Source: an uncultured Gammaproteobacteria bacterium
GTDB taxonomy: Bacteria; Patescibacteriota; Microgenomatia; UBA1406; HO2-37-13b
Length of the DNA: 64,000 nucleotides
Direction: 5' to 3'
NCBI GenBank assembly: GCA_964612595.1
Contig: CAZTFB010000002.1
Coordinates: 70,663-134,662, forward strand
The notes under the pieces were generated by a model. It did not search any database. It worked only from the letters and a program-made list of their open reading frames with translations, and was not told the origin of the DNA. The position numbers and the translations under genes are program-made. Positions within the stretch are counted from its first letter, which is position 1. Every line of letters starts with the position of its first letter. Of the stretch, positions 6,838 through 45,606 are shown in pieces.

Positions 6838-6875
6838 AGCCCGCGGCTTAATAAGGTCGTGTCCGCCGCCTAGAC
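6829..6875 (+). repeat. GC-rich intergenic element (variant of the 25829-25876 element)
   Basis: ATTATATCAAGCCCGCGGC is identical to 25821-25839, followed by AAGGTCGTGTC (6853-6863) and a GCGGC/GCCGC hairpin. Confidence 0.6.
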
Positions 6876-6915
6876 TTCACATAATTAGTTAATATTTTCC
6901 TTTTAAACTACCATT

Positions 6916-7503
6916 ATGGCCTCACGGTATGAGCGAAAATTGTTTCTGGCGCATTCAATATATCACGCATTTAGTCGAGGTGTAAACAAAGCCGATATCT
7001 TTCATTCTCCTGAGGACTATGACTTTTTTACGGAAAGTTTGATGTTGTATCTCCTACCAAAAGAGGAGCTCATTGAGCATCTCTATAAGCAAGGATATTC
7101 ACAGAAAAAAATTCTGCATTTATCATCGAAAGTTGCACACCTTAAAAATTACGCAAATGAAGTTTCCCTTATTGCTTACTGCTTAATGCCAAATCATTTT
7201 CACCTACTTCTTGAACAAGGGAAAAAAACGAGTATGACCAATTTCATGAAATCATTACTTATAAGGTATTCCATGTATTACTCACGCAAGTATGAACATA
7301 TTGGCCCACTCTTTCAAGGTCGGTACAAAGCTATTAATGTATTAAGTGAAACATACTTTCGCATTGTATTTAACTACATCCATGAAAATCCACGCAGTCT
7401 GCAGTCGTTTCACAATAATCCGCAAGACTATCCTTGGTCAAGTATGCGTGGCTATAACGGAGATAACGCGCAACAATCATGGATAAAGACACGATCCTTT
7501 TAA
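6916..7503 (+). CDS. IS200/IS605-type Y1 (HUH) transposase, RayT-like
   Basis: 195 aa. HUH motif in CLMPNHFHLLLEQ, and the C-terminal YIHENP motif typical of Y1_Tnp / REP-associated tyrosine transposases. Confidence 0.75.
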   Translation: MASRYERKLFLAHSIYHAFSRGVNKADIFHSPEDYDFFTESLMLYLLPKEELIEHLYKQGYSQKKILHLSSKVAHLKNYANEVSLIAYCLMPNHFHLLLEQGKKTSMTNFMKSLLIRYSMYYSRKYEHIGPLFQGRYKAINVLSETYFRIVFNYIHENPRSLQSFHNNPQDYPWSSMRGYNGDNAQQSWIKTRSF

Positions 7504-7515
7504 GCCACGGGCTTA
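7488..7515 (-). repeat. 28-nt intergenic element, copy 1 (TAAGCCCGTGGCTTAAAAGGATCGTGTC)
   Basis: 27/28 identical to 22450-22477 and 23/28 to 10980-11007. Starts with the TAA stop of the VirD4-like gene and overlaps the last codons of the transposase on the other strand. Confidence 0.8.
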
Positions 7516-9852
7516 GAGCCTCGAGCGTTGGATAGTTTCTGCCTCTACAAGCTCGCGGGGGCGGCCATACTTGAGGCGAGAAAGCTGGATAATCGCCTCT
7601 GCAATTTTCGGATTTGCCTGTTTAGTATATTCAACAATATCGCGCGTCATATCGATTGAAAATGGTGGTATAGGCTCATTGCGCACAATTGTTTTCATAT
7701 ACGCATGATACTTGTCGACGTTTATAAGGTCTGTCTCGCTAAATACTGGTTGGAATTCGCGTGAAATATATGATGCGTCGGTAACGCCAACGCGGAAACA
7801 GATGAGTGTACCGACGTTTCCAAAGACAGCGTTTTTTACTTCATCATCCATCTGGCCGATGAATTGATTCGCGACTGTAAGCCCCAAACGATATTTACGG
7901 GCCTCAGAAAGAATGACGGCGAAATCTGGTGTCGCAAAATTCTGAAACTCATCGACAAAAAGGAAAAAGTCCTTACGCTGCTCTTCTGGAATTTCTTGGC
8001 GCGACATAGCTGCCACAAGTATCTTTGGAATAATAACAAGTCCGAGGAAAGCGGAGTTTTCCTCCCCAAGCTTACCCTTACTCAAATTAATCAGGAGAAT
8101 TTTGCGCTCATCCATAACGTTTCTAAAGTTAAAGGACGACTCTGATTGACCAATGATATTGCGGATGACTGCATTCGTCACAAAACGGCCAAACTTAGAT
8201 ACGATGTAATCAAGTGTTTCTGATTTATGAAAATCGCTGGTCTGGGCAATCTGATCAGTCCAAAATCGACGAACAATTGGATCTGTAAGCTTTGGCAAAA
8301 GTTCCTGCACATATTTTGGATCGGTCAGGATACGTACCACTTCGATAAATGTAGTACCCTCATCAGCCATAACCGTCAACATAGCATTACGCACCGTATG
8401 CTCAAAACGAGGGCCAACGATACCTGTTCGCTGAGGATCGTAAAGTTTGTACATCAAATTAATGATCGCGGAGGTAATAAAATGCTTTTCCTGTTCTCCG
8501 CGAGCTTCTAATAGATTAAGTCCGATAGGGCGCTCCACATCGGCTGGATCAAAATAAATAACATCCTCCGCCCTATCTGCCGGTATATATTGGAGGATAC
8601 CCTCAACAAGATCACCGTGTGGATCAATCACACAAACGCCATGACCTGCTTTTATGTCTTGAATTGCCATATCTTTAAGCAATTCAGATTTACCAACACC
8701 CGTTTTTCCAATGATGTATAAATGGCGGCGGCGATCTTCCTGCAAAATATGTACTTGCCGCCGCACTCCTCTATAATGCCCGTAGCCCAAATATGTCCCG
8801 CCGTCTTCGGCGACCTCAGCCGCTACGGGCGCCGTTTTTGCCTTTAACCAATGAATAAATGGCGTCTCAACAGTCTTATTCGGAAGATGAAAAATAGTCG
8901 CCAACTCCTCCGAAGATAGAACTGATACCGATTTTGCAAAAGGGAGATCAATAACAGGAAAAAATTTATAGATAAAATTAACCATAAATCCGTACTTAAA
9001 GAGTATTTTTGCCGTACCAAAACTGTTTTGCTCCGAAGCAAACTGGTTAAATGCCGTCTTCATGTTTTTGACATGCATTTCGGCTAATTTTTTATCTTGA
9101 GCTGTTGCAACAAGTCGAATTGCCACATCATATCCAGGTTTTGAAAGTTTTTCACCTATCCGCTCCAAACCCTTTTGGTCAACACTAAACGTCGCTTTGT
9201 CTGGCGAAGCCTCTTTCTTCTTTGTTTTCGCCACATACGACTTTCCTGCCTCTTTATATTTAGATTCTGTGGTGCGCATTAAAACCTGAATAATTGCGCC
9301 TTCACCCTCACTTAGCTTAGATAGCGGTGAAGTCACAGCCGAAAGTGAATCGTAGGGAAGCTCCTTGTATGTTTTTATAGGTTCAAAATCATCATGCTTT
9401 AAGTGCAGCGCAGCATATGCAACATGCCCCTTCTCGCTAAAAATATGCTGTTCCTCTACAACAGCAATATCACACGCTGGATAAAACGCATATATTTGCT
9501 TCTCAACAAGATCCTTAAGTTTATTTGGCACCGTCACATAAAAAGCAATCTTCCCTGGCGTGCCAATAATTTCAAATCCAAGCGTATCTTCAATATCAAG
9601 AAATGACCAAAACCCGCTGTTTTTCAGCGAAGCAAACGAGGCGAACATCTGCTCGGCGGCATCGATTTTTAGCTCGTTATCCTTTGGCAGTCGAATCTCC
9701 ATCGTTACCGACTCTAGCGCGTGTTCTTCGCGCTTTTTCATCTTGATGAGCATAACGACCACATACAATACTGCCGCCGAAAATGCGAGCGCGACGACGA
9801 CTGCGATGAATATGACAAATGTAAGAATAAGGCTATCTACTATGCCTCCCAT
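7513..9852 (-). CDS. type IV secretion coupling-protein-like ATPase (VirD4/TraG/TraD family)
   Basis: 779 aa with an N-terminal TM helix, Walker A GKTGVGKSE, a Walker B-like FFLFVDEFQNF, and C-terminal TraD/TraG-type organisation. Confidence 0.7.
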   Translation of the reverse strand: MGGIVDSLILTFVIFIAVVVALAFSAAVLYVVVMLIKMKKREEHALESVTMEIRLPKDNELKIDAAEQMFASFASLKNSGFWSFLDIEDTLGFEIIGTPGKIAFYVTVPNKLKDLVEKQIYAFYPACDIAVVEEQHIFSEKGHVAYAALHLKHDDFEPIKTYKELPYDSLSAVTSPLSKLSEGEGAIIQVLMRTTESKYKEAGKSYVAKTKKKEASPDKATFSVDQKGLERIGEKLSKPGYDVAIRLVATAQDKKLAEMHVKNMKTAFNQFASEQNSFGTAKILFKYGFMVNFIYKFFPVIDLPFAKSVSVLSSEELATIFHLPNKTVETPFIHWLKAKTAPVAAEVAEDGGTYLGYGHYRGVRRQVHILQEDRRRHLYIIGKTGVGKSELLKDMAIQDIKAGHGVCVIDPHGDLVEGILQYIPADRAEDVIYFDPADVERPIGLNLLEARGEQEKHFITSAIINLMYKLYDPQRTGIVGPRFEHTVRNAMLTVMADEGTTFIEVVRILTDPKYVQELLPKLTDPIVRRFWTDQIAQTSDFHKSETLDYIVSKFGRFVTNAVIRNIIGQSESSFNFRNVMDERKILLINLSKGKLGEENSAFLGLVIIPKILVAAMSRQEIPEEQRKDFFLFVDEFQNFATPDFAVILSEARKYRLGLTVANQFIGQMDDEVKNAVFGNVGTLICFRVGVTDASYISREFQPVFSETDLINVDKYHAYMKTIVRNEPIPPFSIDMTRDIVEYTKQANPKIAEAIIQLSRLKYGRPRELVEAETIQRSRL

Positions 9853-9905: not shown

Positions 9906-10325
9906 ATGAAGACTCTTGGACTGTCAATAACTGCTATTTTCCTCCTGTTGTTTTTGGTTATAAATGTCTATGCGTCTCAACTGTTTCCTCCACTTTACTA
10001 TCGCGTGGTTGGCATACAAGACATCTCAGCAGCTGAAGATTTCTTGCGCTACATAAAAGGAACTCCGATGCATAAACAGCAATATGATTATTTTAACGAG
10101 AAATTTAACAATGGGCTTATTGAGGCACGATTGGCTGAAGAAGAAAAAAATGGCGCTTCAAAAGAGAAATATCGCACCATTCTGGAGAAAAATCCAAAGA
10201 GCCGCGATGCGCTTATTATGCTCGCGCTGTACGAACTACGCGGTGGAAACGAAGAAGAAGCTGCTCGCTATTATACCCAAGCCAAGCAAATCGACCCCTG
10301 GCTTAAAATTGAATCGCTGGAATAG
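9906..10325 (+). CDS. small secreted/anchored TPR-like protein
   Basis: N-terminal hydrophobic signal/anchor. The C-terminal part (ALIMLALYELRGGNEEEAARYYTQAKQIDP) looks like a TPR repeat. Confidence 0.4.
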   Translation: MKTLGLSITAIFLLLFLVINVYASQLFPPLYYRVVGIQDISAAEDFLRYIKGTPMHKQQYDYFNEKFNNGLIEARLAEEEKNGASKEKYRTILEKNPKSRDALIMLALYELRGGNEEEAARYYTQAKQIDPWLKIESLE

Positions 10326-10354
10326 AAGACCACAACCTGTCGAGGATCGTGCCC
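10326..10354 (+). repeat. imperfect hairpin element AAGACCACAACCTGTCGAGGATCGTGCCC
   Basis: 24/29 identical to 45578-45606. Both start immediately after a TAG stop. The left arm matches the perfect terminator hairpin at 19982-20018. Confidence 0.7.
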
Positions 10355-10979: not shown

Positions 10980-11007
10980 TAAGCCCAGGTCTTAAAAAGG
11001 TCGTGCC
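10980..11007 (+). repeat. 28-nt intergenic element, copy 3 (TAAGCCCAGGTCTTAAAAAGGTCGTGCC)
   Basis: 23/28 identical to 22450-22477 (reverse complement). Preceded by TGGAATA, as is the element at 10326. Confidence 0.7.
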
Positions 11008-11470: not shown

Positions 11471-11499
11471 ATTATACTCTTAACAGTAGAACTGGTCAA
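11471..11499 (-). promoter_or_regulatory. sigma70-type promoter TTGACC-N17-TATAAT for cassette ORF 1b
   Basis: -35 at 11499-11494 contains the RNase H TGA stop codon. Exact 17-nt spacer, -10 at 11476-11471. Confidence 0.65.
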
Positions 11500-11939
11500 G
11501 CTCGCGCTGCTTCTTTGAATAAACTTCCTATATCAACCGCATCATTTACGAGCGCATCCGCAAGCTTATTCTTCTCCCGCAGAACGTGTGTATAGCTTAC
11601 CGGAAGGCCCAATTCTTTTTCATACACTCTGATTTGATTAACGTATTCCTGAATATGAGGCTGTTTTATTTTGTAGGCACCCTTTAACTGCTGTACAACC
11701 AAAAGCGAATCGGCGTGCCACTCGACTAGATCAATCGAATATTGTGGCACAAGCACGTTAATAAGCAGTTCATAGGCCTTCATAACGGCCCGATATTCCG
11801 CAGTATTGTTTGTTTCAATGCCAATATCTTCGCGGTGCGCAAACAAGACCTGGTCTTGTTCATCATAAAACACAATGCCGATCGCGGCGGGCCCTGGATT
11901 TCCCTTTGAACCCCCATCTGTAAAAACTTTAAGTTTCAT
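11496..11939 (-). CDS. rnhA: ribonuclease HI-like protein
   Basis: 147 aa with type 1 RNase H acidic motifs: FTDGGSKGNPG, NNTAEYRA, HADSLLVV, KNKLADALVNDA. Confidence 0.75.
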   Translation of the reverse strand: MKLKVFTDGGSKGNPGPAAIGIVFYDEQDQVLFAHREDIGIETNNTAEYRAVMKAYELLINVLVPQYSIDLVEWHADSLLVVQQLKGAYKIKQPHIQEYVNQIRVYEKELGLPVSYTHVLREKNKLADALVNDAVDIGSLFKEAARA

Positions 11940-13920: not shown

Positions 13921-13949
13921 GGCACGAACCTGACAGGACCTGGTCCTGC
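13921..13949 (-). repeat. hairpin element GCAGGACCAGGTCCTGTCAGGTTCGTGCC
   Basis: Lies 3 nt after the recombinase stop. Its 3' half CCTGTCAGGTTCGTGCC parallels CCTGTCGAGGATCGTGCC at 10336-10353. Confidence 0.6.
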
Positions 13950-13952
13950 AAT

Positions 13953-14795
13953 TTAAAGCTCGCCGAGCTTTTCTTTACGCTCGGTTTCTTGCTTTACAAG
14001 CTCCAGGTACTTTTCTGTAGAAGAGAGTCTTCGATGACCTACGATCTTTGAGATGTAGGAAATAGAAGCCCCGTTCATAAGCTGATAAGCAATAAATGTA
14101 TTGCGAAGATCCTGTACCTTCGCATTATCAATACCAACTTCGCGGAAACATCGTGTAATGATGCTTCGAATGTTTCGCACAAGAAGTTGTCGACCTGTTT
14201 TAGTGACAAAGAGGAAATCTGTCTCGCTATCATGGCGGGACTTGATATAACTCTCGACAGCCTTTTCAACGGCCTTATTCATCGGTATAAATCTATCGCT
14301 AATTTTGAGCCCTTCCTTCGTGATGTCACCAAGTTTAATTTCAGCAAGCTCTCCAATTCTTACTCCTGTTTGTAGCAAGAGCTCGATCATTGCGTATGTT
14401 CTTTTATCTGACTTCGAAAAGTCCCTTAATGCTCGATATTCGAGCTTAGAAAGTATGCGCGGTGGAGCCTGATTGTACTTTGGATGAGTTACCTCCAAAG
14501 AAGGATTCTGAGCGATAATTTGCTCCTGTTTCAGATAACGGAAAAAGGTTCTTATAGAGTTAAGCTTGCGCGAAGCGGATTTTTTTGTATATCCTTCACC
14601 AAGAAGCTTAGAGATAAAACCGTCAATGTCGTCTTTTTTGACTTCTTTGATGTCGGTCTTCTCAACTGACGCTATATATGCAATAAACTGCTCCAAGTCT
14701 TTTTTATAAGCCACAACAGTGTGCTTCGACTTGTCTTGTGCAGTCAGATGCTCTATAAATGATTGTACCAGTGTTCGTAAATCTGATGTTATCAT
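13953..14795 (-). CDS. tyrosine site-specific recombinase (XerC/XerD-like integrase family)
   Basis: 280 aa with an N-terminal SAM-like domain. The catalytic region has TGVRIGEL (Arg) and GHRRLSSTEKYLEL (H-x-x-R ... Y). Confidence 0.8.
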   Translation of the reverse strand: MITSDLRTLVQSFIEHLTAQDKSKHTVVAYKKDLEQFIAYIASVEKTDIKEVKKDDIDGFISKLLGEGYTKKSASRKLNSIRTFFRYLKQEQIIAQNPSLEVTHPKYNQAPPRILSKLEYRALRDFSKSDKRTYAMIELLLQTGVRIGELAEIKLGDITKEGLKISDRFIPMNKAVEKAVESYIKSRHDSETDFLFVTKTGRQLLVRNIRSIITRCFREVGIDNAKVQDLRNTFIAYQLMNGASISYISKIVGHRRLSSTEKYLELVKQETERKEKLGEL

Positions 14796-14859
14796 GAATG
14801 CCCTATAATATCACAAAGCGGATAATAATTCAAGCGCAAATTAATTATAATTAAATATT

Positions 14860-15198
14860 ATGTTTAGACTTATTAAAGATTCCATTCTCCTCATACTGTT
14901 GGTTGTTCTTGTTGCGTCGCTCTCGAGGAACATCTTTCTGTATAAAGACAAGTTGTCATTTTACCACGATTATAGAAAAGAATACGAGAAAGAGAGGGAT
15001 CTTAATAAACGACTTAAGAGCGACATAAAGAAAAGTGAGGATTATTATTACGTGGAAAAGGAAATTCGAGAGAAGTTGAACTTATTGCAGCCGGGCGAAA
15101 CGGCGCTGATTATTCCTGAGGTTACGCTGACTCCCGAGCCTACACCATCAGCTCCGAAGAAACCTTACGAACTGTGGTGGGAGCTCTATACACAATAA
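14860..15198 (+). CDS. septum formation initiator (FtsB/DivIC-like)
   Basis: 112 aa with an N-terminal TM helix, a coiled-coil segment and the ..EKEIREKLNLLQPGE motif typical of the family. Confidence 0.6.
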   Translation: MFRLIKDSILLILLVVLVASLSRNIFLYKDKLSFYHDYRKEYEKERDLNKRLKSDIKKSEDYYYVEKEIREKLNLLQPGETALIIPEVTLTPEPTPSAPKKPYELWWELYTQ

Positions 15199-15370
15199 GA
15201 CCGTGTCTTGTTCTGCATCATGCCGAGCGGTATTCAACACTACCTCACATATTCTGTGCTTCCCTTCATTATTGTCATTGGTAGTTTGTTAACCTTCAGT
15301 AAGACCAATTGACCCTATCGTAAATGAAACATAGCGCAGATATACAAACGGGGCTGCAGGAATAAGTTTT

Positions 15371-18580: not shown

Positions 18581-18611
18581 CAGGTACGCACCCTAAAAGG
18601 GTGCGTACCTG
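18581..18611. promoter_or_regulatory. perfect 13-bp inverted repeat between divergent genes
   Basis: CAGGTACGCACCC-TAAAA-GGGTGCGTACCTG lies between starts at 18573 (minus) and 18612/18627 (plus). The position argues for an operator or 5' structure rather than a terminator. Confidence 0.5.
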
Positions 18612-19994
18612 TTGTATTATAAAGGAATGACGCCTAAGCGCTTAATTGTACTCGTCTTTTTATTGATTATTACGCTCGCCTTTTACTTTAAATCGATGCT
18701 GTACATTGATCCTGACCTAGGATGGCAGCTAAAAACAGGTGAAATAATTCTTTCAAAGGGTTTTCCGCGTACAGATCCTTTCTCATATACTATGTCTCAT
18801 TTTGCGTTTGTTCCGCATTCGTGGCTGACGGATGTTGTTTTCCACCATGTGTTCCAGCTCGCTGGACTATCGGGACTCGCATTTGTTACTAGCATTGCTC
18901 TCACAATCACTGTAGTAGTTATTTGCGGGGTTATATGGCAAACATGGATGTTTGTACCCGCTCTGTTGGTTGCTGTGCATTTAATGCCATATGCAGGGAT
19001 GCGCCCACAAACGTTTAGCTGGCTTTTTTTTGCGCTTCTGCTTCGAGTGCTCGTTGATAAAAAAGCCGAACATGTCTATGGGCGCTATTTACCCATATTG
19101 CTTTTTGTGTGGGCTCAGCTTCATGGTGGGTTTTTAATTGGCATAGTGCTATTAGCCATCTGGGCGTTTTTTGACCTCAAAAAGCGCGCCTTAATAGTAT
19201 TGTTCGCCACAGTCGCAACACTTGTGAATCCCTATGGGATCGCGCTGTGGCGCGAAGCACTAATGACATTTTTCTCGCTATCCACGCGGGCAAGCGTCAA
19301 TGAGTGGTCGCCAACGCTTGCGCGCCTTGATCTACGTCTTGGGCTTGTTATGCTCTTGCCCACATTCCTTATCGTTCGCTACCCTCGCGCATACTCGCCA
19401 TTCTTTAAACTTACATATGTCATACTCTTTCTCACCATGCTTTCTTCAAGCAAACTATTTCCGTTTTGGCTTATCATGGCAGGCTATACAATGATCATAG
19501 GCTTAACTACTCTTGAAAAAAGTACTGTGCAGATCAAAGGTGCAGCTAAACGCCTCAATACACTTCTATATGTTCTTTTTCTTCTTATTGCAATTAATGC
19601 AGCCGTTCTCATCATATCAACGTTTAAAACCTACAAAACTCTGGATGAAGATGTGTATTACCCGAAAAATGCTGTAATTTTCCTAAAAACACATCCGCCC
19701 CAAGGTAATATATTTGCCCCCTTCGGCTGGGGCGGTTACCTCATATGGAAACTCCCAGAAAAGAAGGTCTTTATCAGTGGACATATGCCACATTGGGAGC
19801 ATATTCTTGAAGATTATATTAAGATAATCAAGCTGGAAAGCCCTTTTGAGAAAATCACCACATCCTATAATATCTCAACGGTGCTTGTTCAAAAAAATAA
19901 AACAAACTTTGCTGCATTGACTACTTATCTTAAGAAAAATGGCTGGAAAACGATTTATGAAGGTGGCGTATCGGAGATATTAATAAGACCGTAA
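18612..19994 (+). CDS. polytopic membrane protein (possible O-antigen-ligase/GT-C-like)
   Basis: 460 aa with more than 10 hydrophobic helices and a soluble C-terminal domain. Start uncertain (TTG 18612 or ATG 18627). Confidence 0.45.
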   Translation: MYYKGMTPKRLIVLVFLLIITLAFYFKSMLYIDPDLGWQLKTGEIILSKGFPRTDPFSYTMSHFAFVPHSWLTDVVFHHVFQLAGLSGLAFVTSIALTITVVVICGVIWQTWMFVPALLVAVHLMPYAGMRPQTFSWLFFALLLRVLVDKKAEHVYGRYLPILLFVWAQLHGGFLIGIVLLAIWAFFDLKKRALIVLFATVATLVNPYGIALWREALMTFFSLSTRASVNEWSPTLARLDLRLGLVMLLPTFLIVRYPRAYSPFFKLTYVILFLTMLSSSKLFPFWLIMAGYTMIIGLTTLEKSTVQIKGAAKRLNTLLYVLFLLIAINAAVLIISTFKTYKTLDEDVYYPKNAVIFLKTHPPQGNIFAPFGWGGYLIWKLPEKKVFISGHMPHWEHILEDYIKIIKLESPFEKITTSYNISTVLVQKNKTNFAALTTYLKKNGWKTIYEGGVSEILIRP

Positions 19995-20018
19995 CCTGGC
20001 ACAGGTTACGGTCTTATT
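19982..20018. terminator. bidirectional stem-loop terminator (17-bp perfect stem)
   Basis: AATAAGACCGTAACCTG-GCA-CAGGTTACGGTCTTATT followed by TT. Contains the stop codon of the upstream gene. Its left arm resembles the elements at 10326 and 45578. Confidence 0.75.
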
Positions 20019-22415: not shown

Positions 22416-22440
22416 GACACGGTCCTCTCTTAGCCCGCGC
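22416..22440 (-). repeat. GC-rich box element (GCGCGGGCTAAGAGAGGACCGTGTC)
   Basis: Parallels GCGGGCTAGAAAGGGGTCGTGTC at 25851-25873. Lies in tandem with the 28-nt element at 22450. Confidence 0.5.
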
Positions 22441-22449: not shown

Positions 22450-22477
22450 GACACGATCTTTTTAAGCCACGGGCTTA
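22450..22477 (-). repeat. 28-nt intergenic element, copy 2 (TAAGCCCGTGGCTTAAAAAGATCGTGTC)
   Basis: 27/28 identical to 7488-7515. Starts with the TAA stop of the 215-aa pilin-like gene. Confidence 0.8.
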
Positions 22478-23122
22478 CTGTATGCCAGGTAGGCCGAGGC
22501 TTCGAGAGATGAACTGGATGATGAATACAGAGAACAGTGCGAATAACAAACCTACGATTGAGCCTATTAATATCCTTCTCCCTTGATTGAGTCTTCCCGC
22601 ATCTGAGCGCGATGTTGCAATAACCGCAGTACCATAGATAAAGCTTAAGAATGCAATACCGCCGATAATGGAGAAGAAAAAGCTCGACATTTGGGCTGTA
22701 AATTCTCCCGGTTGTGTCGATAGACAACCAAACCCGGTATAGTAATGGTTTGGGTCTGGTGTTGGGATAAGTCCCGCTTCGTTTGTCAGTGTTCCCAGAG
22801 CAGTTGGATCTACATCTGCACCCTCTATACCAACAACTTCTGGATATAAACAGCGCACACATGCTTGCCAACTTCCTGGAACCTTCGTGACGCCCTGACA
22901 ATACCCACATAAATCACAGTTAGCAATGCTCTTATGTGGCTCGTCTGTGGGAAGGGGCGCTCCTAGCCCTGGGGTCGGTGTTGCCGCTGTTGAAAAAGGA
23001 GTTGGGGTTGCGGGCACAGCAGTTGGGGGTATTCCTTGCGCAAAAGCAGAGGATATCAAGCCGAGATGTGAGGTACAGATGACAAAGAAATAGATACTAA
23101 TGATGACTTTGCGCAGACTCAT
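22475..23122 (-). CDS. Cys-rich pilin-like protein (VirB2/TrbC-like C-terminal topology)
   Basis: 215 aa: signal peptide, Pro/Thr-rich linker, a CDLCGYCQ...CVRC cysteine cluster, and a C-terminal TM, charged loop, TM module. Confidence 0.45.
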   Translation of the reverse strand: MSLRKVIISIYFFVICTSHLGLISSAFAQGIPPTAVPATPTPFSTAATPTPGLGAPLPTDEPHKSIANCDLCGYCQGVTKVPGSWQACVRCLYPEVVGIEGADVDPTALGTLTNEAGLIPTPDPNHYYTGFGCLSTQPGEFTAQMSSFFFSIIGGIAFLSFIYGTAVIATSRSDAGRLNQGRRILIGSIVGLLFALFSVFIIQFISRSLGLPGIQ

Positions 23123-24833: not shown

Positions 24834-25814
24834 TTATACCTTGACGCTACTCTTTTCGAAAATCGTACGAATAATATCCTCAATTTTTTCTTCCTCGACC
24901 GTTATGTCGATAAAGGGAATGTTTTTTGAGACCGCCGCAACAAGCTCTGAGACATTTTTCCTTTGCACACGGAATCGTATTTTTGGATACTCAATCGATT
25001 CGATATGGCCAACTTTCTCTAGCGTTGCGGTATTTGGCATATCGTCGACAACAATCTCAACGGTTTTTGTTCGTGCATATTTTTGAATCAGTTTTTCGAT
25101 ATCGCCATCGTATAATAGTGCGCCGTGGTCGATAATAATTACTCTTTTAGCAAGCCGGCGCACATCTTCCATATAGTGACTTGTGAGAAGGATTGTGGCT
25201 TTGTAAAAGCTTTGATATTGCTCAATAAAATCGCGAATGTTCTTTTGTGCAACGACATCAAGACCAATGGTCGGCTCATCTAAGAAAAGGACTTTTGGCT
25301 TGTGAATCAGTGTTGAAATGAGTTCAGCTTTCATTCTTTGGCCAAGGGACAGCGTTTTCACCGGCTGATCAATCACATCATGTGCATCGAGCATCTCAAC
25401 AAGCTCACCAAGGGTTTTTTTGTATTCTCTCTCGGGAATTTCATAAATTGTTTGGTTAAGTTTAAAAGTATCGGTCGCTGGAAGCTCCCAAAGCATCTGG
25501 TTTTTCTGACCCAAGATAAAGGAGATGTTGCGTAGGTATTCATGTTGTTTATCGAAGGGCGTATAACCGAGTACGCTGACCGAGCCGCTCGTAGGATATA
25601 AAATACCGGTCAGCATTTTCATAGTTGTTGTTTTTCCAGCGCCGTTTGGACCGACAAAACCAACCAATTCCCCCTGCTCAATCTCAAAGCTTATATCTTT
25701 GACTGCTTCGATTTCTTTATAGGTTCGGGCGAAGATGTTGCGGAGAGCCCCATCAAAACCGTCCTGCTTTATGGGTGTGCGGTATGTTTTGCGAAGATGT
25801 GAAACCGAAATCAT
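24834..25814 (-). CDS. ABC transporter ATP-binding protein
   Basis: Walker A GPNGAGKTT, signature LSLGQRMK, Walker B VLFLDEPT. Confidence 0.85.
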   Translation of the reverse strand: MISVSHLRKTYRTPIKQDGFDGALRNIFARTYKEIEAVKDISFEIEQGELVGFVGPNGAGKTTTMKMLTGILYPTSGSVSVLGYTPFDKQHEYLRNISFILGQKNQMLWELPATDTFKLNQTIYEIPEREYKKTLGELVEMLDAHDVIDQPVKTLSLGQRMKAELISTLIHKPKVLFLDEPTIGLDVVAQKNIRDFIEQYQSFYKATILLTSHYMEDVRRLAKRVIIIDHGALLYDGDIEKLIQKYARTKTVEIVVDDMPNTATLEKVGHIESIEYPKIRFRVQRKNVSELVAAVSKNIPFIDITVEEEKIEDIIRTIFEKSSVKV

Positions 25815-25829
25815 ATGGTGATTATATCA
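25815..25829 (-). promoter_or_regulatory. extended -10 promoter TGATATAAT 6 nt before ATG (leaderless-type)
   Basis: The minus strand reads TGATATAAT-CACCAT-ATG. Confidence 0.5.
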
Positions 25830-29399: not shown

Positions 29400-30656
29400 T
29401 TACGCGGCTTTAGCGATAGGCTTCTTACTCCTGTCAATACTCGGCTTCCTTCCCGCGTCATAATCCCGCTGACATAACTCACATATAGCACATGGACCGA
29501 TTTTAACTTTTTTAGCTCCACATCCACCTTTTCCAAACTCGCGGCAATCCTTGTCATCCTCCCATTTTGATGTGTCCCTCCACGCTTCTCTATCAATCGC
29601 CTGTTCCCCAAAAACGCTGTACATTGCAGCCATATGCGGCGACATATCACCAAGCAGGCCGATATACATGTTTGATGACTGAGTATCACATACAAGACTC
29701 CCATAGAAGAGTGGGGCGTCGTGTTGTCCGTAGTATTGCGCAATGTACGAACCTATATCTATGAGATTGCCATCTACTACAGGTGCAGCCATTTTAGTTG
29801 CTGCTTCATCCTGCTCATCTCTTAAAAGCGTAGCCTGTTCAAAGAGATAGTCGCGTGCCTGCTTCGCTGCCCTCGTTATTTCTGCATATCGAAATGGAAC
29901 TTCCTGTTTATCGACAGTGGCTAACTCTGACATTAGTCCAATGAAATGTTGGACATACTGACCAAGGTCTTGGCGCACACGAGCGGCAAATGCTTCTGAG
30001 GCGTCAACCTTATCTTGAGTTAAACCAAGTAGTTCGTATATGCGGCCATGGTCTGCGGAGCCACTGAAAGCCAATGGCCGCACGAGCATTTCTTCTGTAG
30101 TTTCTGGGGCAGATAAGTTACCGCTAAAACCTGCTGATTGTTGCATCTGATCGTACTCTTTTTGAGCTTTTCTAAATCCAACATCGTCGTGTCGATGCAT
30201 GATGTTCGTTTGGATAATACGGAAGCTGCCGTCTATGTTCGGAATCTTGCGGAACGTAAAAGTAAAGCGACGATCACCGTAACCTTCTTTCGACGGAGAA
30301 GAAAGGACTACCATTGAAACATTCTGGTCAAGTAACATTTTATATGCCTCTTGATAACCTATAACTTCATAGTGTTCTCGTGACCAATGTCCGTACTTTT
30401 CAATAGTCCGTTGCCACGATGATTGAAGATCGAGCCCTTGCATAACCCACGCTCCGTCTTGTCGTAGTTCACCCTCTAGCTCACTAAAGGGAACATAGCC
30501 TGCATGTTCATTAAGGAGGCCGATCATCTGTCCATCAAGAAACTGACTGTGGAAAGATTCGGGAAGCTCTCGAAGTCGAGCGACTTCTAAAGGAATGTCG
30601 TAAAGGCGATCCAACGAATGCCCCTCTTGGGGCTGTAATCTTTCAGCTTGTTGCAT
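29400..30656 (-). CDS. orphan protein with C-terminal cysteine cluster (zinc-ribbon-like)
   Basis: 418 aa. The C-terminus CREFGKGGCGAKKVKIGPCAICELC has a CxxxxxxC...CxxC pattern. Composition is Q/E/A/G/R-rich, and hand-counted GC of two 60-nt lines is 48-53%, above the flanks. Confidence 0.5.
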   Translation of the reverse strand: MQQAERLQPQEGHSLDRLYDIPLEVARLRELPESFHSQFLDGQMIGLLNEHAGYVPFSELEGELRQDGAWVMQGLDLQSSWQRTIEKYGHWSREHYEVIGYQEAYKMLLDQNVSMVVLSSPSKEGYGDRRFTFTFRKIPNIDGSFRIIQTNIMHRHDDVGFRKAQKEYDQMQQSAGFSGNLSAPETTEEMLVRPLAFSGSADHGRIYELLGLTQDKVDASEAFAARVRQDLGQYVQHFIGLMSELATVDKQEVPFRYAEITRAAKQARDYLFEQATLLRDEQDEAATKMAAPVVDGNLIDIGSYIAQYYGQHDAPLFYGSLVCDTQSSNMYIGLLGDMSPHMAAMYSVFGEQAIDREAWRDTSKWEDDKDCREFGKGGCGAKKVKIGPCAICELCQRDYDAGRKPSIDRSKKPIAKAA

Positions 30657-30749
30657 ATCCCTGCGCGGGGTAGGATTTGGAAGGTAGTCGGACTATAACC
30701 GTTGCGGCACAGCTCAGGAATTTCACCTGGATTCCCCGTTCCAAAACCG

Positions 30750-31277
30750 TTAAACAAATAATTCTTCGTTTGTATTATGCAGGCGCCCCATGGCGTAGAG
30801 CATATCTGACAAACGATTCAGGTATTGTAGCATACCATCTGCGTTTTCTGCCTCGATCGTCGTACTGTTTTTTAAAAATGTCGTCACTTTTCGCTCTGCG
30901 CGCCGACATACAGCGCGCGCTATATGGCACGCAACGCTCAGCTGCGTGCCCTGGATGAGAATAAACTTTGTACCAGTTGGTTTTCTTGATTCAACATCGT
31001 CAATGTACTTTTCAAGCACATTAATATGTTCCTTTACCGTCGCCATATCAACCGGCGCACCACACAATACGCTCATCATTACATAGAGATCCCGCTGTAT
31101 GAGCGTTATGAGCCCCTCATCACCTTTTGCTTCCGGGTGGCTTACTATCATACCAAGCCACGACGTAAGCTCATCAATATCACCATACGCTTCAATTTGC
31201 GGGTCGTCTTTTGGGAGTCTTTTTCCTCCATAAAGTCCCGTTGTTCCTTTATCGCCACTTTTGGTATAGATTTTCAT
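30750..31277 (-). CDS. ATP:cob(I)alamin adenosyltransferase, PduO type
   Basis: The N-terminus MKIYTKSGDKGTTGLYGG is the hallmark of PduO-type adenosyltransferases. About 175 aa. Confidence 0.85.
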   Translation of the reverse strand: MKIYTKSGDKGTTGLYGGKRLPKDDPQIEAYGDIDELTSWLGMIVSHPEAKGDEGLITLIQRDLYVMMSVLCGAPVDMATVKEHINVLEKYIDDVESRKPTGTKFILIQGTQLSVACHIARAVCRRAERKVTTFLKNSTTIEAENADGMLQYLNRLSDMLYAMGRLHNTNEELFV

Positions 31278-31323
31278 AGACACGACCCGTTTCTAGACCG
31301 CACCCCGATCGCGCCGCGGTCTT
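31276..31323 (-). repeat. 48-nt hairpin element, copy B
   Basis: The reverse complement AAGACCGCGGCGCGATCGGGGTGCGGTCTAGAAACGGGTCGTGTCTAT fills the nrdJ/adenosyltransferase gap and ends in the ATG of the latter. Confidence 0.8.
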
Positions 31324-39648: not shown

Positions 39649-39684
39649 ACTTGAACTTAGAAATTCGTGTGTTAGAATGACGGT

Positions 39685-40781: not shown

Positions 40782-42050
40782 ATGAAATACTTTGTAAAAA
40801 CTTTTGGATGCCAACAGAATGTTGCTGATTCTGAACGTGTGGAGGCGCGCCTGCAGGCGCGCGGAATGACACCTGCGTCTTCGTACGAAGACGCAGATCA
40901 GATTGTCATCAACACGTGTATGGTACGCGAGTCTGCAGAAAACCGCGTCTATGGTTTGGTTGATAATCTAAGCAAACTGAAAGAGAAAAAACCAACACTC
41001 AAGATTGTGGTGACAGGCTGTATGGTTGGTGTGGCATTTCGTGACAAAACCGGCAAGGTGTTAAAAAAAATCAAAAAAGCCATGCCTGCTGTCGATGAGT
41101 TTATGCCTATCGAAGAGGTGGGATTTGATTTCGCACCTGTGCGTACGAGCAAGACTGCTGCGTGGGTTCCTATCTCAAATGGGTGCAATAATTTTTGCAC
41201 CTTTTGTATTGTGCCCTTTACGCGCGGGAGGGAAGTTTCCCGCCCATATGAAGATATAATTGAAGAGTGCAAAGAACTTAGAAAAGATGGGTACAAAGAA
41301 GTTACGCTTCTTGGACAAAACGTAAATTCATACGGTGCTGATCTTATCGTTGGAGAAAAGAATATTCAAGTGATGCGCGATCTCCCCGATAAGACATATT
41401 TCGATGAGAAGGCCGTGGAGCCCCAGACACGATCTAAAAAAGCCACGGGCTTCTCGGTCAATGGTCGTACCATAGAACCAGTATATGTAAAACATCTTGG
41501 TAGATTACGTATTCCAACTCTTTTCCCCCATCTTCTCGATGAGATCGCGCAGATGGGATTCGAGCGTGTGGATTTTGTATCCTCAAACCCATGGGATTTT
41601 TCTGATGAAGTTATTGAGGTAATGGCACGTAACCCAAACATAACACGCGTCCTCCACCTCCCCCTTCAACATGGAGATAACAATGTTCTCAAGCGCATGA
41701 ATCGTTGGTATACTCGTGAGGAATATATGACAATCATCGATAAAATACGTTCAAAAATCCCCGATATGAAATTCACAACCGACATCATTGTTGGGTTTTG
41801 CGGAGAAACACCTGAAGAGTTCGAAAGTACCGTCGATATATGTAAAAAAGTGGGTTTTTATAAAGCATATGTCGCTATGTATTCACAAAGACCTATGACT
41901 GCGGCAACAAAAATAATGGCTGATGATGTGCCGCATGCAGAAAAAAAGCGCCGATGGCAGGTCTTAGAAAAGCTTATCAACAAGCCCCACCTCGAGTCCT
42001 TTGGAGAGGAACAATACCATATGCACAAAAAAACAAGCTATGCACATTGA
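40782..42050 (+). CDS. miaB: tRNA methylthiotransferase MiaB-like (radical SAM)
   Basis: N-terminal TFGCQQNVADSE, the radical-SAM CNNFCTFC cluster, and the MTTase domain order. Confidence 0.8.
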   Translation: MKYFVKTFGCQQNVADSERVEARLQARGMTPASSYEDADQIVINTCMVRESAENRVYGLVDNLSKLKEKKPTLKIVVTGCMVGVAFRDKTGKVLKKIKKAMPAVDEFMPIEEVGFDFAPVRTSKTAAWVPISNGCNNFCTFCIVPFTRGREVSRPYEDIIEECKELRKDGYKEVTLLGQNVNSYGADLIVGEKNIQVMRDLPDKTYFDEKAVEPQTRSKKATGFSVNGRTIEPVYVKHLGRLRIPTLFPHLLDEIAQMGFERVDFVSSNPWDFSDEVIEVMARNPNITRVLHLPLQHGDNNVLKRMNRWYTREEYMTIIDKIRSKIPDMKFTTDIIVGFCGETPEEFESTVDICKKVGFYKAYVAMYSQRPMTAATKIMADDVPHAEKKRRWQVLEKLINKPHLESFGEEQYHMHKKTSYAH

Positions 42051-42552: not shown

Positions 42553-42582
42553 TTCCCGCATAATTACCGATTTATTAACGCA
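42553..42582. repeat. 30-bp perfect direct repeat, copy 1
   Basis: TTCCCGCATAATTACCGATTTATTAACGCA is identical to 43851-43880. Contains the stop codon of the oxidoreductase gene. Confidence 0.95.
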
Positions 42583-43859
42583 CTGACTTCTCTACCAAGC
42601 TTAATCGCATAGTTCGTACCCCTATCGTAGGGATACGTCATATCAAGATTGGCAATAAATAAATTGGGAATAGGTGTCGTGTAGTCGGGTTTATTATGCA
42701 CAAAAGTAGCGTCAAAGATGGGTTGGGCGAATGGACCGGTGAAATCGTAGGATGAAATCACCTTAAACTTATTATCAATAAATTTCCTGAGCTCGGACAC
42801 AACCTCCTTGCTAAAATCAGCTTCTGAAAGCTTCATAACTCTGTCATTACGCTCTAGATAGTAGCCTACGTATGCGATGTGGTGATTATTGTAGTGCTTC
42901 TTATCGACAAAATTTGTGTGCTGAGCAACCAACATGAGTGGAATCTTGTCGGTACAAATATTAAGCCAGTAGGTTTTATCGAGGAGGGGAACGTCGGTTT
43001 CTAATATTAAAACTCGAGCATGAAGGTAGTGTAGGTTTTGAATTTTTTTCAAGTATTCTTGGGGAAGAATTGTTGATGCCACCTTGGCTAAAACGGGGGA
43101 AGGTAACGTAGAGATAACCATATCAAAAGCTTCTCCATCTATAATGAATTGTTCGCCATTCTTCTCCATTTTTGTAATTTCATATCCCTTGCGAATATCC
43201 ACCTTTGCTTTGACATTAATGCTCTCTAAATGTTCTATAAAGCTCTGGAAGCCGCCAACCATATACCCCAAGTCTTTGGTTCTTTTATGAATCCTCGCCC
43301 ACAAAAACGAAGCAAGTATTTTTCCCGCATATTTACCGTACTTTTTCTGAAAAAGCTGTTGGAAAAAGACTTCCCACATATTGTCACCCATATAACTACG
43401 GACGAACTGCTCAGCGGAAATCGTTTCATAATAACGAAAGAACGGAAACACCTTAAGGACACCTAGTCCTAAAGCGCCTCTTAATTTATCAAGAGGGTTA
43501 AGAAGGGGTAATTTTAAGAAATCGAGTGGGGAATCAACAGGATATGTTTTAAAACCGTCTTGCGTCGAGTAAAGTGAGTCCGTGTGTGGTTCACTAAAAT
43601 ATATATCGTTAAACCCTATCTCTTTTGCAAAGTTAATGATATCTGAATCATTAGAGAAAAGATGGTGATAGGCTTTCTCAAGTGGCCAATCCCATCCTTT
43701 GCCTTTAAATCCTATTGCGAGACCGCCCAGTACAGGGGCCTTCTCGAATAAGGTAACGCTGTGGTTATTCGATGCTAGTTCGTAAGCAGCTGTCAAGCCT
43801 GTCAGACCCCCACCGAGCACAGCTATTTTTTGTTTTTTCTCAATATCTTTTTCCCGCAT
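42564..43859 (-). CDS. FAD-dependent oxidoreductase (amine oxidase/phytoene desaturase-like)
   Basis: KIAVLGGGLTGLTAAYEL dinucleotide-binding motif. Start ATG 43859 (MREKD) lies inside repeat copy 2. Confidence 0.7.
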   Translation of the reverse strand: MREKDIEKKQKIAVLGGGLTGLTAAYELASNNHSVTLFEKAPVLGGLAIGFKGKGWDWPLEKAYHHLFSNDSDIINFAKEIGFNDIYFSEPHTDSLYSTQDGFKTYPVDSPLDFLKLPLLNPLDKLRGALGLGVLKVFPFFRYYETISAEQFVRSYMGDNMWEVFFQQLFQKKYGKYAGKILASFLWARIHKRTKDLGYMVGGFQSFIEHLESINVKAKVDIRKGYEITKMEKNGEQFIIDGEAFDMVISTLPSPVLAKVASTILPQEYLKKIQNLHYLHARVLILETDVPLLDKTYWLNICTDKIPLMLVAQHTNFVDKKHYNNHHIAYVGYYLERNDRVMKLSEADFSKEVVSELRKFIDNKFKVISSYDFTGPFAQPIFDATFVHNKPDYTTPIPNLFIANLDMTYPYDRGTNYAIKLGREVSALINR

Positions 43860-43880
43860 AATTACCGATTTATTAACGCA
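43851..43880. repeat. 30-bp perfect direct repeat, copy 2
   Basis: Identical to 42553-42582. Contains the start codon of the oxidoreductase gene. Confidence 0.95.
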
Positions 43881-43887
43881 GAGATCT

Positions 43888-44421
43888 TCACAACAGCGCA
43901 AGACAGTGTGGGACCCATGGTGCATATATATTAGATGCTAAAAACTTTGGGTCTTTAACTTTTTCAACAGGAACAACAGAATACCCATACGCAAATTCCA
44001 AATTTGGTTCAGGAATATGATCGATTTCTACGGTATAAAAATAACAAACTTCATGTTCACCGAAATCACTATTTGAATCGTCGGCTTGATAATATGCAGA
44101 ACCTTTATTTATGAGTGGAGAAGTTAGTTGGTCCTTTTTAACATGCCATTCACGCTCGAAAGCTCGATACACCGCGTCTTCGGTCGGCTCAATCTCATCC
44201 CCAATAAAAAGTGGATGAGATGAGCAGGTTAAATCAAATACAGAATCGAATAACACATGTTTTCTATGCTGAAGTATGACTTGACCATCAAATAAAAGGC
44301 ATGCAGTAAATGCTCTGTGGAGAATTTGTTTTTCGTGCGCTTCCCAACGCTCTATTTTTCCAATAATGTTATCTTCTTTGTCGACTTGAGCAAGATATTG
44401 TTTTTCAGCATAATAGTCCAT
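43888..44421 (-). CDS. idi: isopentenyl-diphosphate delta-isomerase type 1-like (NUDIX fold)
   Basis: GKIERWEAHEKQILHRAFTACLLFDGQVILQHR pattern of type 1 IDI. Confidence 0.6.
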   Translation of the reverse strand: MDYYAEKQYLAQVDKEDNIIGKIERWEAHEKQILHRAFTACLLFDGQVILQHRKHVLFDSVFDLTCSSHPLFIGDEIEPTEDAVYRAFEREWHVKKDQLTSPLINKGSAYYQADDSNSDFGEHEVCYFYTVEIDHIPEPNLEFAYGYSVVPVEKVKDPKFLASNIYAPWVPHCLALL

Positions 44422-44464
44422 GTCTGTATTCTAACATAGCGGCTACTTCAGTTATAATAGGGTC

Positions 44465-45577
44465 ATGAACAGAGACTTTCCTGTAAAACTAGCTCTCATT
44501 TCTGTATTGCTCTTTGAATTATTTCTGCTGTTTGGTAATCCGGTTAAAGCTCAGGTTGTATGTTCAAATAGGGATGATTGCCAGAATAAAATAAAAGAGT
44601 ATGAGTCAAAGCTCAGCGCCACGCGAGAAGCTAAAGGAAATTTAACCTCACAAATTCAGCTCACAAACACCAAGGTTGAGCTTGCACAAGTACGCATACA
44701 AAAAACCCAACACGATATTGAGGCAACTCAGAATGAAATTGCCCAATTAACTGGAAAGATTGAGCAGCTCAACACCACACTAGATCATTTGAGCGAAATT
44801 CTGCTGCAAAAAATTGTCGAAGGGTATAAAAACAAGGAAGCGAGCATTCTCGATATTCTGCTCTCCCCAGAGGCATCAACCCTCACAAATCAACTCAAAT
44901 ATATCCAGATAGCTCAAGAAAACGATCGTCTTCTTGCACTTCGTACTCAACAAGTAAAAGTAAATTTCTCTGAACAAAAAACGCTTCGCGAAGATAAAAA
45001 GGTTGATCTTGAAAAGCTCGAGAAAGATTTAGAGGCACAGAGAGTAGAGTTGAAGAACCAGATTGCTCAAAAAAACGCGCTTCTTGAGCAAACAAAGAGT
45101 GACGAAAAAAAATACCAACAATTGTTGAGTCAGGCATTGGCAGAATTTCAGGCGGTAAACAAAGCTATTGAGACAGGACAAAAAGTGGGTGAGGTTAAAA
45201 AGGGTGATCCAATAGCACTGATTGGCAATACAGGATATCCTCATTGCTCAACTGGAGCACACCTGCATCTTGAGGTGCGCAAGGGTGGCACATGGACAGA
45301 TCCAGGCGCATATTTGGGAAGCAGTTGGGATTGGCCAATTAGTCAACCTATTGAAATTACACAGGGGTATGGAGTGACGCCATGGTCATGGCGTTACTCA
45401 TATAGCGGAGGCATACATACAGGGTACGATATGGTGAGTAGGAGCAGTGAGGTGATACGTGCAGTAGCTGACGGCACCCTCTACTCATCCTCGCAGAATT
45501 GTAGCGGCTCGATCATAAAGATTAAATACATTGACCACGGGAACGACCTCATGAGCTTCTATCTGCATGTGCAATAG
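44465..45577 (+). CDS. M23-family peptidoglycan endopeptidase with N-terminal coiled coil
   Basis: Signal peptide, about 230 aa of coiled coil, and the GNTGYPHCSTGAHLHLEV M23 motif. Confidence 0.8.
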   Translation: MNRDFPVKLALISVLLFELFLLFGNPVKAQVVCSNRDDCQNKIKEYESKLSATREAKGNLTSQIQLTNTKVELAQVRIQKTQHDIEATQNEIAQLTGKIEQLNTTLDHLSEILLQKIVEGYKNKEASILDILLSPEASTLTNQLKYIQIAQENDRLLALRTQQVKVNFSEQKTLREDKKVDLEKLEKDLEAQRVELKNQIAQKNALLEQTKSDEKKYQQLLSQALAEFQAVNKAIETGQKVGEVKKGDPIALIGNTGYPHCSTGAHLHLEVRKGGTWTDPGAYLGSSWDWPISQPIEITQGYGVTPWSWRYSYSGGIHTGYDMVSRSSEVIRAVADGTLYSSSQNCSGSIIKIKYIDHGNDLMSFYLHVQ

Positions 45578-45606
45578 AAGACCGCAACCTCACGAGGTTC
45601 GTGGCC
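45578..45606 (+). repeat. imperfect hairpin element AAGACCGCAACCTCACGAGGTTCGTGGCC
   Basis: 24/29 identical to 10326-10354. Begins right after the TAG stop of the M23 gene. Confidence 0.7.

Follow-up and report, generated by a model that had tools for sequence, protein, structure and literature searches.

Short hairpin-and-tail repeats, probably cognate to a single-locus Y1 transposase gene, dispersed in a Patescibacteria genome

REPtrons and TIRtrons, in which a Y1 transposase gene is flanked by hairpin repeats, further hairpins are dispersed, and hairpin types are specific to the transposase allele, have been described for the REP-associated tyrosine transposases (RAYTs; REP, repetitive extragenic palindromic sequence) and for the TIRYTs (TIR, terminal inverted repeat) (PMC3733652; PMC6006769). 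The TIRYTs and TIRtrons of Di Nocera 2013 (PMC3733652) correspond to TnpAY1 subclass 2.1 of Quentin 2018 (PMC6006769) and to Bertels group 1. Here, we report a family of short repeats, each a GC-rich hairpin followed by a conserved tail, and a Y1 transposase-like gene bracketed by inverted copies of them, in a 64,000-nucleotide stretch of a Patescibacteria genome (contig CAZTFB010000002.1, positions 70,663 to 134,662; hereafter the window, with positions counted from its first letter). The boxes are probably one dispersed REP-like family, the cognate repeat of this resident, single-locus Y1 endonuclease, in an architecture of the REPtron/TIRtron kind. Because inverted copies bracket the lone Y1 gene, the best reading is a REP-like mobile family and not decayed terminators.

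The Y1/HUH tyrosine transposase-like gene (6916-7503, plus strand) was missed by the original prediction of these boxes, as was an intragenic copy at 41426-41453. It encodes 195 aa with the motifs PNHFHLL, GPLFQGRYKA, YIHENP, and YPWSS; the protein matches Pfam Y1_Tnp (E = 1.4e-10), and H94, H96, Y154, and N158 do not vary among 26 homologues. A single-sequence PDB search gave no meaningful match, the link to Y1 transposases coming only via profile and fold searches: a homologue profile matches ISDra2 TnpA with the HUH and Tyr motifs in register, and the AlphaFold2 model (pLDDT 91) has as its best Foldseek match 4ER8_A (E = 3e-6), a structure of the REP-associated tyrosine transposase of E. 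coli in complex with a REP hairpin; ISDra2 and IS608 TnpA rank next. Some relatives already bear automatic "RayT" labels from Joint Genome Institute (JGI) pipelines, so the protein family is not new. One copy of the gene is present in the window, with no tnpB beside it; its context is the same in nine independent assemblies and syntenic in two other species. The protein and its close clade (192-203 aa) end where the right-hand element starts, and Patescibacteria homologues of 215-249 aa have an additional ~35 aa at the C terminus.

The two flanking copies have their tails facing the gene. Element a (6837-6863, plus strand; AAGCCCGCGGCTT-AATAA-GGTCGTGTC) forms the left flank, where its outer hairpin end meets the TGnTATAAT promoter of gene 6106-6822, which is divergent and leaderless. 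Element b (7488-7515, minus strand; TAAGCCCGTGGCTT-AAAA-GGATCGTGTC, read from 7515 to 7488 as AAGCCCGTGGCTT-AAAA-GGATCGTGTC) forms the inverted right flank; its TAA (7513-7515) is the stop codon of a convergent TrwB-like gene (7513-9852), and on the other strand it encodes the last five Y1 codons (KTRSF) and the Y1 stop.

The same arrangement of inverted copies with gene-proximal tails was found in four relatives (L016, L013, L010, and L021), making five genomes with the window, and the type of flank varies with the Y1 allele. In L016, where Y1 is 68% identical to that of the window, the flanks are the same short hairpins (AAGCCCGYGGCTT); L021 (54%) has long-loop flanks, L013 (58%) has TAGGACCAGGTCCTGTCAGGWTCGCGCC flanks, and L010 (54%) has AAGACCAGGTCT-type flanks. 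L016 and L021 share the locus of the window, and L013 and L010 each differ, giving three distinct genomic contexts. Relative to the TrwB and FAD-oxidoreductase genes, the cassette is inverted in L016 (9928-10616) and L021 (9920-10600) compared with the window (6837-7515), whose orientation is that of the nine independent assemblies. Although TrwB is 98% and Xer 100% identical between L021 and the window (neighbours, 82 to 100%), Y1 is only 54% identical, indicating that the Y1 cassette was exchanged together with its flanks at a fixed locus. The L013 flank 28-mer (GGACCAGGTCC) has at least eight further copies in 19 kb, some of them symmetric and "double-tailed".

Among more distant Patescibacteria Y1 genes (33 to 42% identical), palindromic hairpins with cores such as GGTCCGACC stand at both gene ends in approximately 40 of 70 loci, 30-60 nt upstream and at the 3' end of the gene; in L023 and L024, plain inverted repeats flank Y1. 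Distant relatives from a metagenome scan had hairpins at or within the gene and no dispersal within ±3 kb, so dense dispersal is shown only for the window's own clade. In L029 to L100, the flanking palindrome also lies inside the Y1 coding sequence in one or two copies, apparently in frame (e.g., L039 at 2948/3151/3458/3686 and L037 at 2948/3152/3460/3661); CTGCAGGGCCAGGCCCTGCAG would translate to LQGQALQ, a peptide present in P0029. These in-gene hairpins recall the REP insertions within tnpA-REP reported for subclass 2.4.

Each repeat unit (28-48 nt) comprises a GC-rich hairpin with a 5- to 7-bp stem, a 4- to 6-nt spacer, and a tail of approximately 10 nt, GG(N)TCG(Y)G(Y)C. The hairpins are of four types (AAGCC-CGY-GGCTT, AAGAC-NNN-GTCTT, AGGACC-A-GGTCCT, and a 7-bp AGCCCGC/GCGGGCT stem with a 14-nt loop), the loop being 1-3 nt in all but the last. 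Folded as single-stranded DNA, the short stems reach -3.3 to -5.5 kcal/mol and the long-loop type approximately -12.5 kcal/mol. The core that had been proposed as common to the boxes is non-random: GGNTCGTGYC occurs five times in the window against 0.45 expected, a count attained by 0 of 100 shuffles, and a broader tail pattern has 13 occurrences (4.0 ± 1.9 expected), while TCGTGTC alone is marginally enriched (11 versus 4.8). In an alignment of 22 copies from five genomes, the 5-bp stem was paired in 99% of cells and two pairs covaried (A-T/G-C and C-G/A-T). A covariance model (R2) trained solely on copies from other genomes recovered seven window copies (E = 1.5e-9 to 1.5e-6), elements a and b among them. 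The window total comes to approximately 13 members, including the long-loop pair, two subfamily-2 copies, a partial copy at 22416-22440, and a palindrome at 19982; at least 11 copies lie in 19 kb of L013 and approximately 8 in 41 kb of L020 and L021, which puts a copy at roughly every 2-5 kb of the stretches examined.

All box sequences, coordinates, and strands of the original prediction were present as given. Its subfamily 1 is represented, besides element b, by element c (22450-22477, minus strand; 27/28 identical to b, as had been counted), whose TAA (22475-22477) is the stop codon of a pilin-like gene (22475-23122), and by a variant, element d (10980-11007, plus strand), which matches b at 22 of 28 positions and not at the 23 previously given. 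Element d lies within a degraded 398-nt spacer, and its TAA at 10980 is the stop of no credible gene. Beside it, a 125-nt direct duplication (10850-10974/11530-11654; 98% identical), an internal fragment of an RNase H gene (11496-11939), stops 5 nt short of the element, with the junction forming a small palindrome (TATTCCTGAATTGGAATA); Logan contig L004 terminates exactly at 10974, the end of the duplicated fragment. The intragenic copy, element e (41426-41453, minus strand), lies in frame in a MiaB-like gene (40782-42050) and encodes QTRSKKATGF. It lies in a variable loop of the protein, reading ARSKKDTVF in the 91%-identical L020 orthologue, and the hairpin is kept through a compensatory double change (AAGCC-ACG-GGCTT versus AAGAC-ACG-GTCTT; GCC/GGC to GAC/GTC). 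Intragenic copies have been documented for classical REPs (PMC3733652).

Subfamily 2 comprises element h (10326-10354, plus strand; AAGACCACAACCT-GTCG-AGGATCGTGCC), directly 3' of the TAG (10323-10325) of a tetratricopeptide repeat (TPR) gene (9906-10325), and element i (45578-45606, plus strand), directly 3' of the TAG (45575-45577) of an M23 peptidase gene; the two agree at 24 of 29 positions, as first reported, and h is a weak covariance-model match (E = 0.08). Element j (13921-13949, minus strand; AGGACCAGGTCCT-GTCA-GGTTCGTGCC) is of the GGACC type that flanks Y1 in L013 and lies 5 nt past the TAA of a xer-like gene; the promoter of the leaderless gene that comes next follows it. Element l (15196-15225, plus strand; TAAGACCGTGTCTT-GTTCT-GCATCATGCC) has a decayed tail (compare L013, 6131), and its TAA (15196-15198) is the stop codon of a DivIC-like gene. 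The related boxes noted earlier are genuine but belong to fuller units: 6853-6863 is the tail of element a, and 25861 and 31279 mark the tails of an inverted pair of 48-nt long-loop copies, elements f (25829-25876, plus strand; AAGCCCGC-[14-nt loop]-GCGGGCT-AGAAA-GGGGTCGTGTC) and g (31276-31323, minus strand), which are 44/48 identical and share a 7-bp stem and 14-nt loop. Element f, of the same type as the L021 Y1 flanks, occupies the divergent promoter region between gene 24834-25814 and a ClpB-like gene, and g lies between the TAG of a ribonucleotide reductase gene and the ATG of a cobalamin adenosyltransferase gene. Element k (22416-22440, minus strand; GCGGGCT-AAGAGA-GGACCGTGTC) is the 3' portion of a long-loop copy, in tandem 9 nt downstream of c.

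Orthologous sites differ between the window and its relatives. The spacer between the ribonucleotide reductase and cobalamin adenosyltransferase genes is filled by the 48-nt element g in the window and is an empty 9 nt (GGTGTGCCT) in L020; the M23 peptidase stop is followed by a subfamily-2 copy (element i) in the window and by a subfamily-1 type in L020. Past the xer-like stop, a GGACC-type copy in the window corresponds to a long-loop copy in L021 and to none in L016, and past the TPR gene, subfamily 2 (element h in the window; also in L016) is replaced by the long-loop type in L021. The perfect 17-bp palindrome at 19982-20018, with arms identical to the subfamily-2 left arm, had been put forward as a native terminator of which the boxes are decayed versions; it is absent at the orthologous L016 site, a lineage-specific insertion, and is probably a derived, symmetrised subfamily-2 arm and not the ancestor of the boxes. 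A further perfect palindrome at 18581-18611 (CAGGTACGCACCCT-AAA-AGGGTGCGTACCTG; compare L021, 1075-1105, CAGGGTCGCACCCT-AAA-AGGGTGCGACCCTG) has an arm, GGGTCGCAC, that resembles the element tail, and may be another symmetrised relative of the family.

Most copies stand at gene ends. In many window genes, an extended -10 box (TGnTAnAAT) ends 6-7 nt upstream of the ATG or GTG (6823-6915, 14796-14859, 25815-25868, 39649-39684, 44422-44464, 46072-46291, and others), with no Shine-Dalgarno sequence, suggesting that spacers are tiny and that mRNAs of the source genome are, as a rule, leaderless. Eight of the ~13 copies overlap the stop codon of a co-oriented gene or begin 0-6 nt past it (5-6 nt at 13953 and 31330), and the adjacency to stop codons first noted for the boxes holds, with the TAA inside the hairpin at 7513-7515, 22475-22477, and 15196-15198 and a TAG directly before 10326 and 45578. 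The others are a and f, which lie against the -10 box of a divergent leaderless gene and have no stop codon upstream, the intragenic e, the tandem partial k, and d in its degraded spacer. Element strand follows gene strand (six plus and seven minus, all to the same side of the probable replication origin near dnaA), and no replication-strand bias was seen among these window copies. The layout in relatives is alike (stop codon, hairpin, spacer, tail, TGnTATAAT, and leaderless start), and in reverse orientation the spacer provides TGA or TAA, as in the POR and Y1 genes of L013. Such placement is most simply explained by purifying selection where free spacer is nearly absent, plus co-option for stops and C termini.

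Other roles for the tail were considered and rejected. As a general role, a Shine-Dalgarno or start signal (AGG/GAGG and GTG; 8 nt before the ATG at 31278) does not fit with downstream genes that are mostly leaderless with their own promoter, nor with copies b, e, and j, which have no start codon at a fitting distance; the probable start of the ClpB-like gene, the ATG at 25932, was likewise counted against this role. As a -35 or UP element, the tail would lie at a distance from the -10 box that varies from 1 to 10 nt. A tRNA T-arm-like reading of GGTTCGTGGCC had no support in tRNA and Rfam scans, and the Rfam scan of the window placed no family at or above gathering score on the repeat elements.

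Compared with the E. coli REPtron (TnpA-REP/YafM with its REP/BIME repeats), the locus is alike in having a single-locus HUH/Y1 gene with inverted hairpin flanks, repeats that in the stretches examined are dispersed mostly just downstream of open reading frames (ORFs), a repeat type for each transposase allele, several subtypes per genome, and occasional in-frame intragenic copies, besides the structural match to 4ER8. It differs in its stems of only 5-7 bp, in its host, and in its Y1 motifs, which are the FQ/NHFH/YIHxNP/PWSS of subclass 2.1 and not the DHLH/WE/YIHYNP of subclass 2.2 (PMC6006769). The published subclass 2.1 motifs are NH[YF]H, FQ or W[EQ], Y[IV]HLNP or YIELNP, and SS in the tail (PMC6006769, Table 1); the window protein has NHFH, LFQG, YIHENP (consensus YIHRNP), and YPWSS, and by motif comparison it appears nearest to this subclass.

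As in TIRtrons, the gene lies between terminal inverted repeats, the 3' one overlapping its end; some TIR families also show moderate dispersal and partial self-complementarity. To the published motif GGGGWSAS, the long-loop tail GGGGTCGTG is a partial fit through GGGGWS, GGGGTCGT agreeing at 6 of 8 positions, whereas the short types have AAGGTCGT or AGGATCGT there (tails AAGGTCGTG or AGGATCGTG). The 195-aa clade is also without the ~35- to 50-aa C-terminal helix-turn-helix-like extension of typical subclass 2.1 proteins (median, 238 aa), and its repeats are densely dispersed. The CGTC-tagged REPs of Di Nocera 2013 (PMC3733652) are similarly short palindromes located after ORFs with an unpaired conserved CGT(C/G) tag; their stems, however, are of 8-9 bp and start with A-T pairs, the tag lies directly at the stem end, and no transposase was found for them, whereas the window tag is longer, spaced, and Y1-associated.

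Several points weigh against a REP-like family cognate to this Y1 gene. The protein scores 44.6 bits against NCBIfam REP_Tyr_transpos (NF047646, the RAYT equivalog), below the cut-off of 80, and on that score is a RAYT relative and not an equivalog; the repeats have no 5' GT[AG]G at either hairpin foot, carrying instead the ~10-nt tail 4-6 nt from the stem. We therefore class the system as REPtron/TIRtron-like and not as canonical RAYT/REP. For subclass 2.1, the nearest by motifs, Quentin et al. found no REP-like sequences (PMC6006769). The Y1 flanks of L010 do not have the GATCGTGCC tail borne by its own dispersed copies. A scan of a 185,579-species genome collection with the 27-mer AAGCCCGYGGCTTAAWANGNTCGTGTC returned only two matches, OZ246401.1 (L018; the L010 genome) and JABWBO010000140.1 (L019; a metagenome-assembled genome contig labelled Anaerolineae), and any genome-wide copy number would be an extrapolation from partial stretches. 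The strain comparison covered nine Logan contigs (seven 100%, one 99.9%, and one 98% identical to the window); no indel was reported at the elements among the eight near-identical contigs, giving no sign of recent transposition, and the 98%-identical contig had two gap openings relative to the window. Lastly, orientation by gene strand is unlike the prediction of a purely lagging-strand-targeting mechanism and points to strong selection or other coupling. Regarding the two matching accessions, OZ246401.1 is a 938-kb chromosome titled "Gammaproteobacteria" with a Patescibacteria-type Y1 gene and gene content, and its title looks wrong; the Anaerolineae contig, which holds the exact element, may be mis-binned.

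The strongest rival explanation is that the elements are host gene-end signals (hairpin terminators, insulators, or mRNA 3' stabilisers, set between leaderless genes that are transcribed separately) to which the Y1 flanking is incidental or secondary. Their position at co-oriented stops, the promoter and leaderless start that directly follow several copies, and their orientation with the gene strand are what such signals would show, and for classical REPs, mRNA stabilisation and a location downstream of ORFs have likewise been reported (PMC3733652). We nevertheless regard this explanation as unlikely, and terminators, one of the roles first suggested, did not hold up as the primary nature of the boxes: spacers are AAAA(A), AATAA, AGAAA, or TGTCA, with the subfamily 1 stem followed by A-runs, no T-run is present, and a consensus terminator scan flagged none. 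Nor does it account for copies a and f in divergent promoter regions, for e within a coding sequence, or for inverted Y1 flanks that recur in three genomic contexts and track the Y1 allele; unlike a conserved signal, the elements vary or are missing at orthologous gene ends of close relatives. The elements may nonetheless have been co-opted secondarily as terminators or insulators.

A quite improbable alternative is that Y1 and its two flanks form an ordinary insertion sequence (IS) of the IS200/IS605 type, the solo boxes being miniatures like miniature inverted-repeat or palindrome-associated transposable elements (MITE- or PATE-like). The HUH/Y1 catalytic core, the Y1_Tnp match, and the fold similarity to IS608 and ISDra2 TnpA are common to both, as would be recognition of DNA hairpins, presumably in single-stranded DNA, and the hairpin ends recall IS200/IS605 subterminal hairpins; inversion of the cassette in L016 and L021 and replacement of the allele in L021 further imply that the cassette itself moves or recombines. 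Set against this are a single syntenic locus, the missing tnpB, flanks that are inverted copies of one element and not same-strand left- and right-end hairpins, a Y motif (YIHxNP; class 2, RAYT-like) that is not the IS200 Y---Q (PMC6006769, Table 1), and solo copies that are single 28-nt units instead of paired ends around DNA.

That the elements are sites of the Xer-like tyrosine recombinase (13953-14795), or attC-like recombination sites, is very improbable. Element j does lie directly 3' of the xer-like gene, and hairpin-forming sites recall attC. However, that gene has no element in L016 and a different type in L021, no integron-type integrase attained its family cut-off, and the consistent partner across genomes is Y1 and not Xer. 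attC sites are roughly 60-140 nt, longer than these 28- to 48-nt elements, and dif measures ~28 bp, its central region 6 bp. That GC-rich terminator-like hairpins resemble one another only by chance or composition, as the modest short stems, the common terminator-like composition AAGNCC...GGNCTT, and the marginal TCGTGTC count might suggest, is effectively refuted by the core count, the stem pairing and covariation, and the covariance model; the 27/28 and 44/48 identical pairs and the same units in four other genomes, always adjoining Y1, also speak against it.

If the boxes are the cognate REP-like repeat of the Y1 gene, the Y1 protein would be the mobilising enzyme, binding the hairpin in single-stranded DNA, its likely substrate, after the model of E. 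coli TnpA-REP and of IS608/ISDra2 TnpA, and cutting and rejoining the adjoining DNA. Recognition or cleavage would depend on the conserved tail, much as it depends on GTAG in classical REPs, and cutting and rejoining would seed or replace copies across the chromosome. Surviving copies would be those between a stop codon and the next promoter, often co-opted as stop or C-terminal codons. The REP-like role named among the original suggestions is favoured by the inverted flanks here and in four relatives and by the differing orthologous sites, and a recombination or processing role enters only as presumed recognition by the HUH endonuclease.

Genomes of Patescibacteria (candidate phyla radiation [CPR]) are extremely compact (~1 Mb) and considered to contain little mobile DNA; a dense REP-like family with its own Y1 enzyme would mean that domesticated repeat systems persist even there. 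The repeats shape gene ends, supplying stop codons and C-terminal residues and, in MiaB, an in-frame insertion, and a TnpAY1 group (2.1/TIRYT) reported as REP-less would now be tied to a dispersed hairpin family with a long conserved tag. The hairpin plus GGWTCGYGYC offers a tractable substrate prediction for biochemistry, and such repeats likely break metagenome assemblies or confuse gene calling, as at the end of contig L004. A full-text literature search on RAYT/REP with Patescibacteria/CPR yielded no relevant report (a KEGG RAYT annotation in an archaeon is all that one preprint mentions), and Microgenomates, Parcubacteria, and CPR are unmentioned in Quentin et al. 2018 (PMC6006769). What appears undescribed so far is the cognate repeat family, with its tag, its dense occurrence in a CPR genome, and its integration into gene ends; the architecture itself is known from REPtrons and TIRtrons.

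A wider and rather doubtful proposition is that in Microgenomates-type Patescibacteria, a domesticated Y1 gene and hairpin-tail repeats make up a genome-wide system of gene-end modules. If true, copies would be inserted or retained according to the transcription strand and not to replication direction, through transcription-coupled access to single-stranded DNA or a selected function at the RNA level; they would routinely supply stops and C-terminal peptides and keep leaderless transcription units apart. Invertible and exchangeable as a unit, the Y1 cassette would through its allele determine the hairpin type that spreads, and REP biology would extend to a TnpAY1 subclass thought REP-less and to the most reduced bacterial genomes.

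The window has a G+C content of 42% and very densely packed genes, among them genes for type IV secretion system (T4SS)-pilin-like, TrwB/VirD4-like, SpoIID, DivIC, and class-II-like ribonucleotide reductase proteins. Named homologues of the MiaB-like protein come from "Woesebacteria" (90% identity), "Microgenomates bacterium OLB23" (88%), and "Roizmanbacteria" (69%), which places the window in a Patescibacteria genome of Microgenomates type. A DnaA-box-like cluster (TGTGGATAA/TTATCCACA) at 50674-50783 lies directly 5' of a 453-aa ORF (50784-52145) that is probably dnaA, its L020 orthologue having Bac_DnaA domains; the cumulative GC-skew minimum falls at ~32-48 kb, and the cluster region is likely oriC.

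Rfam matches in the window were limited to three tRNAs and one AdoCbl-II riboswitch (30674-30747, minus strand; 50.8 bits), the latter upstream of an uncharacterised 418-aa ORF (29400-30656) and neighbouring the cobalamin adenosyltransferase gene and the ribonucleotide reductase gene with NrdR. tRNA-Pro(GGG) (59863-59934, minus strand) falls within a plus-strand 558-aa ORF (58374-60050), either an over-called ORF end or a true overlap. A perfect 30-nt direct repeat (TTCCCGCATAATTACCGATTTATTAACGCA) occurs at 42553-42582 and 43851-43880, at the 3' end and near the 5' end of an amine-oxidase-like gene (42564-43925); in L020, the halves of TTCCCGCATAATTACCGATTTATTAACGCA are separated, one at each end of a shorter, 431-aa amine-oxidase-like orthologue.

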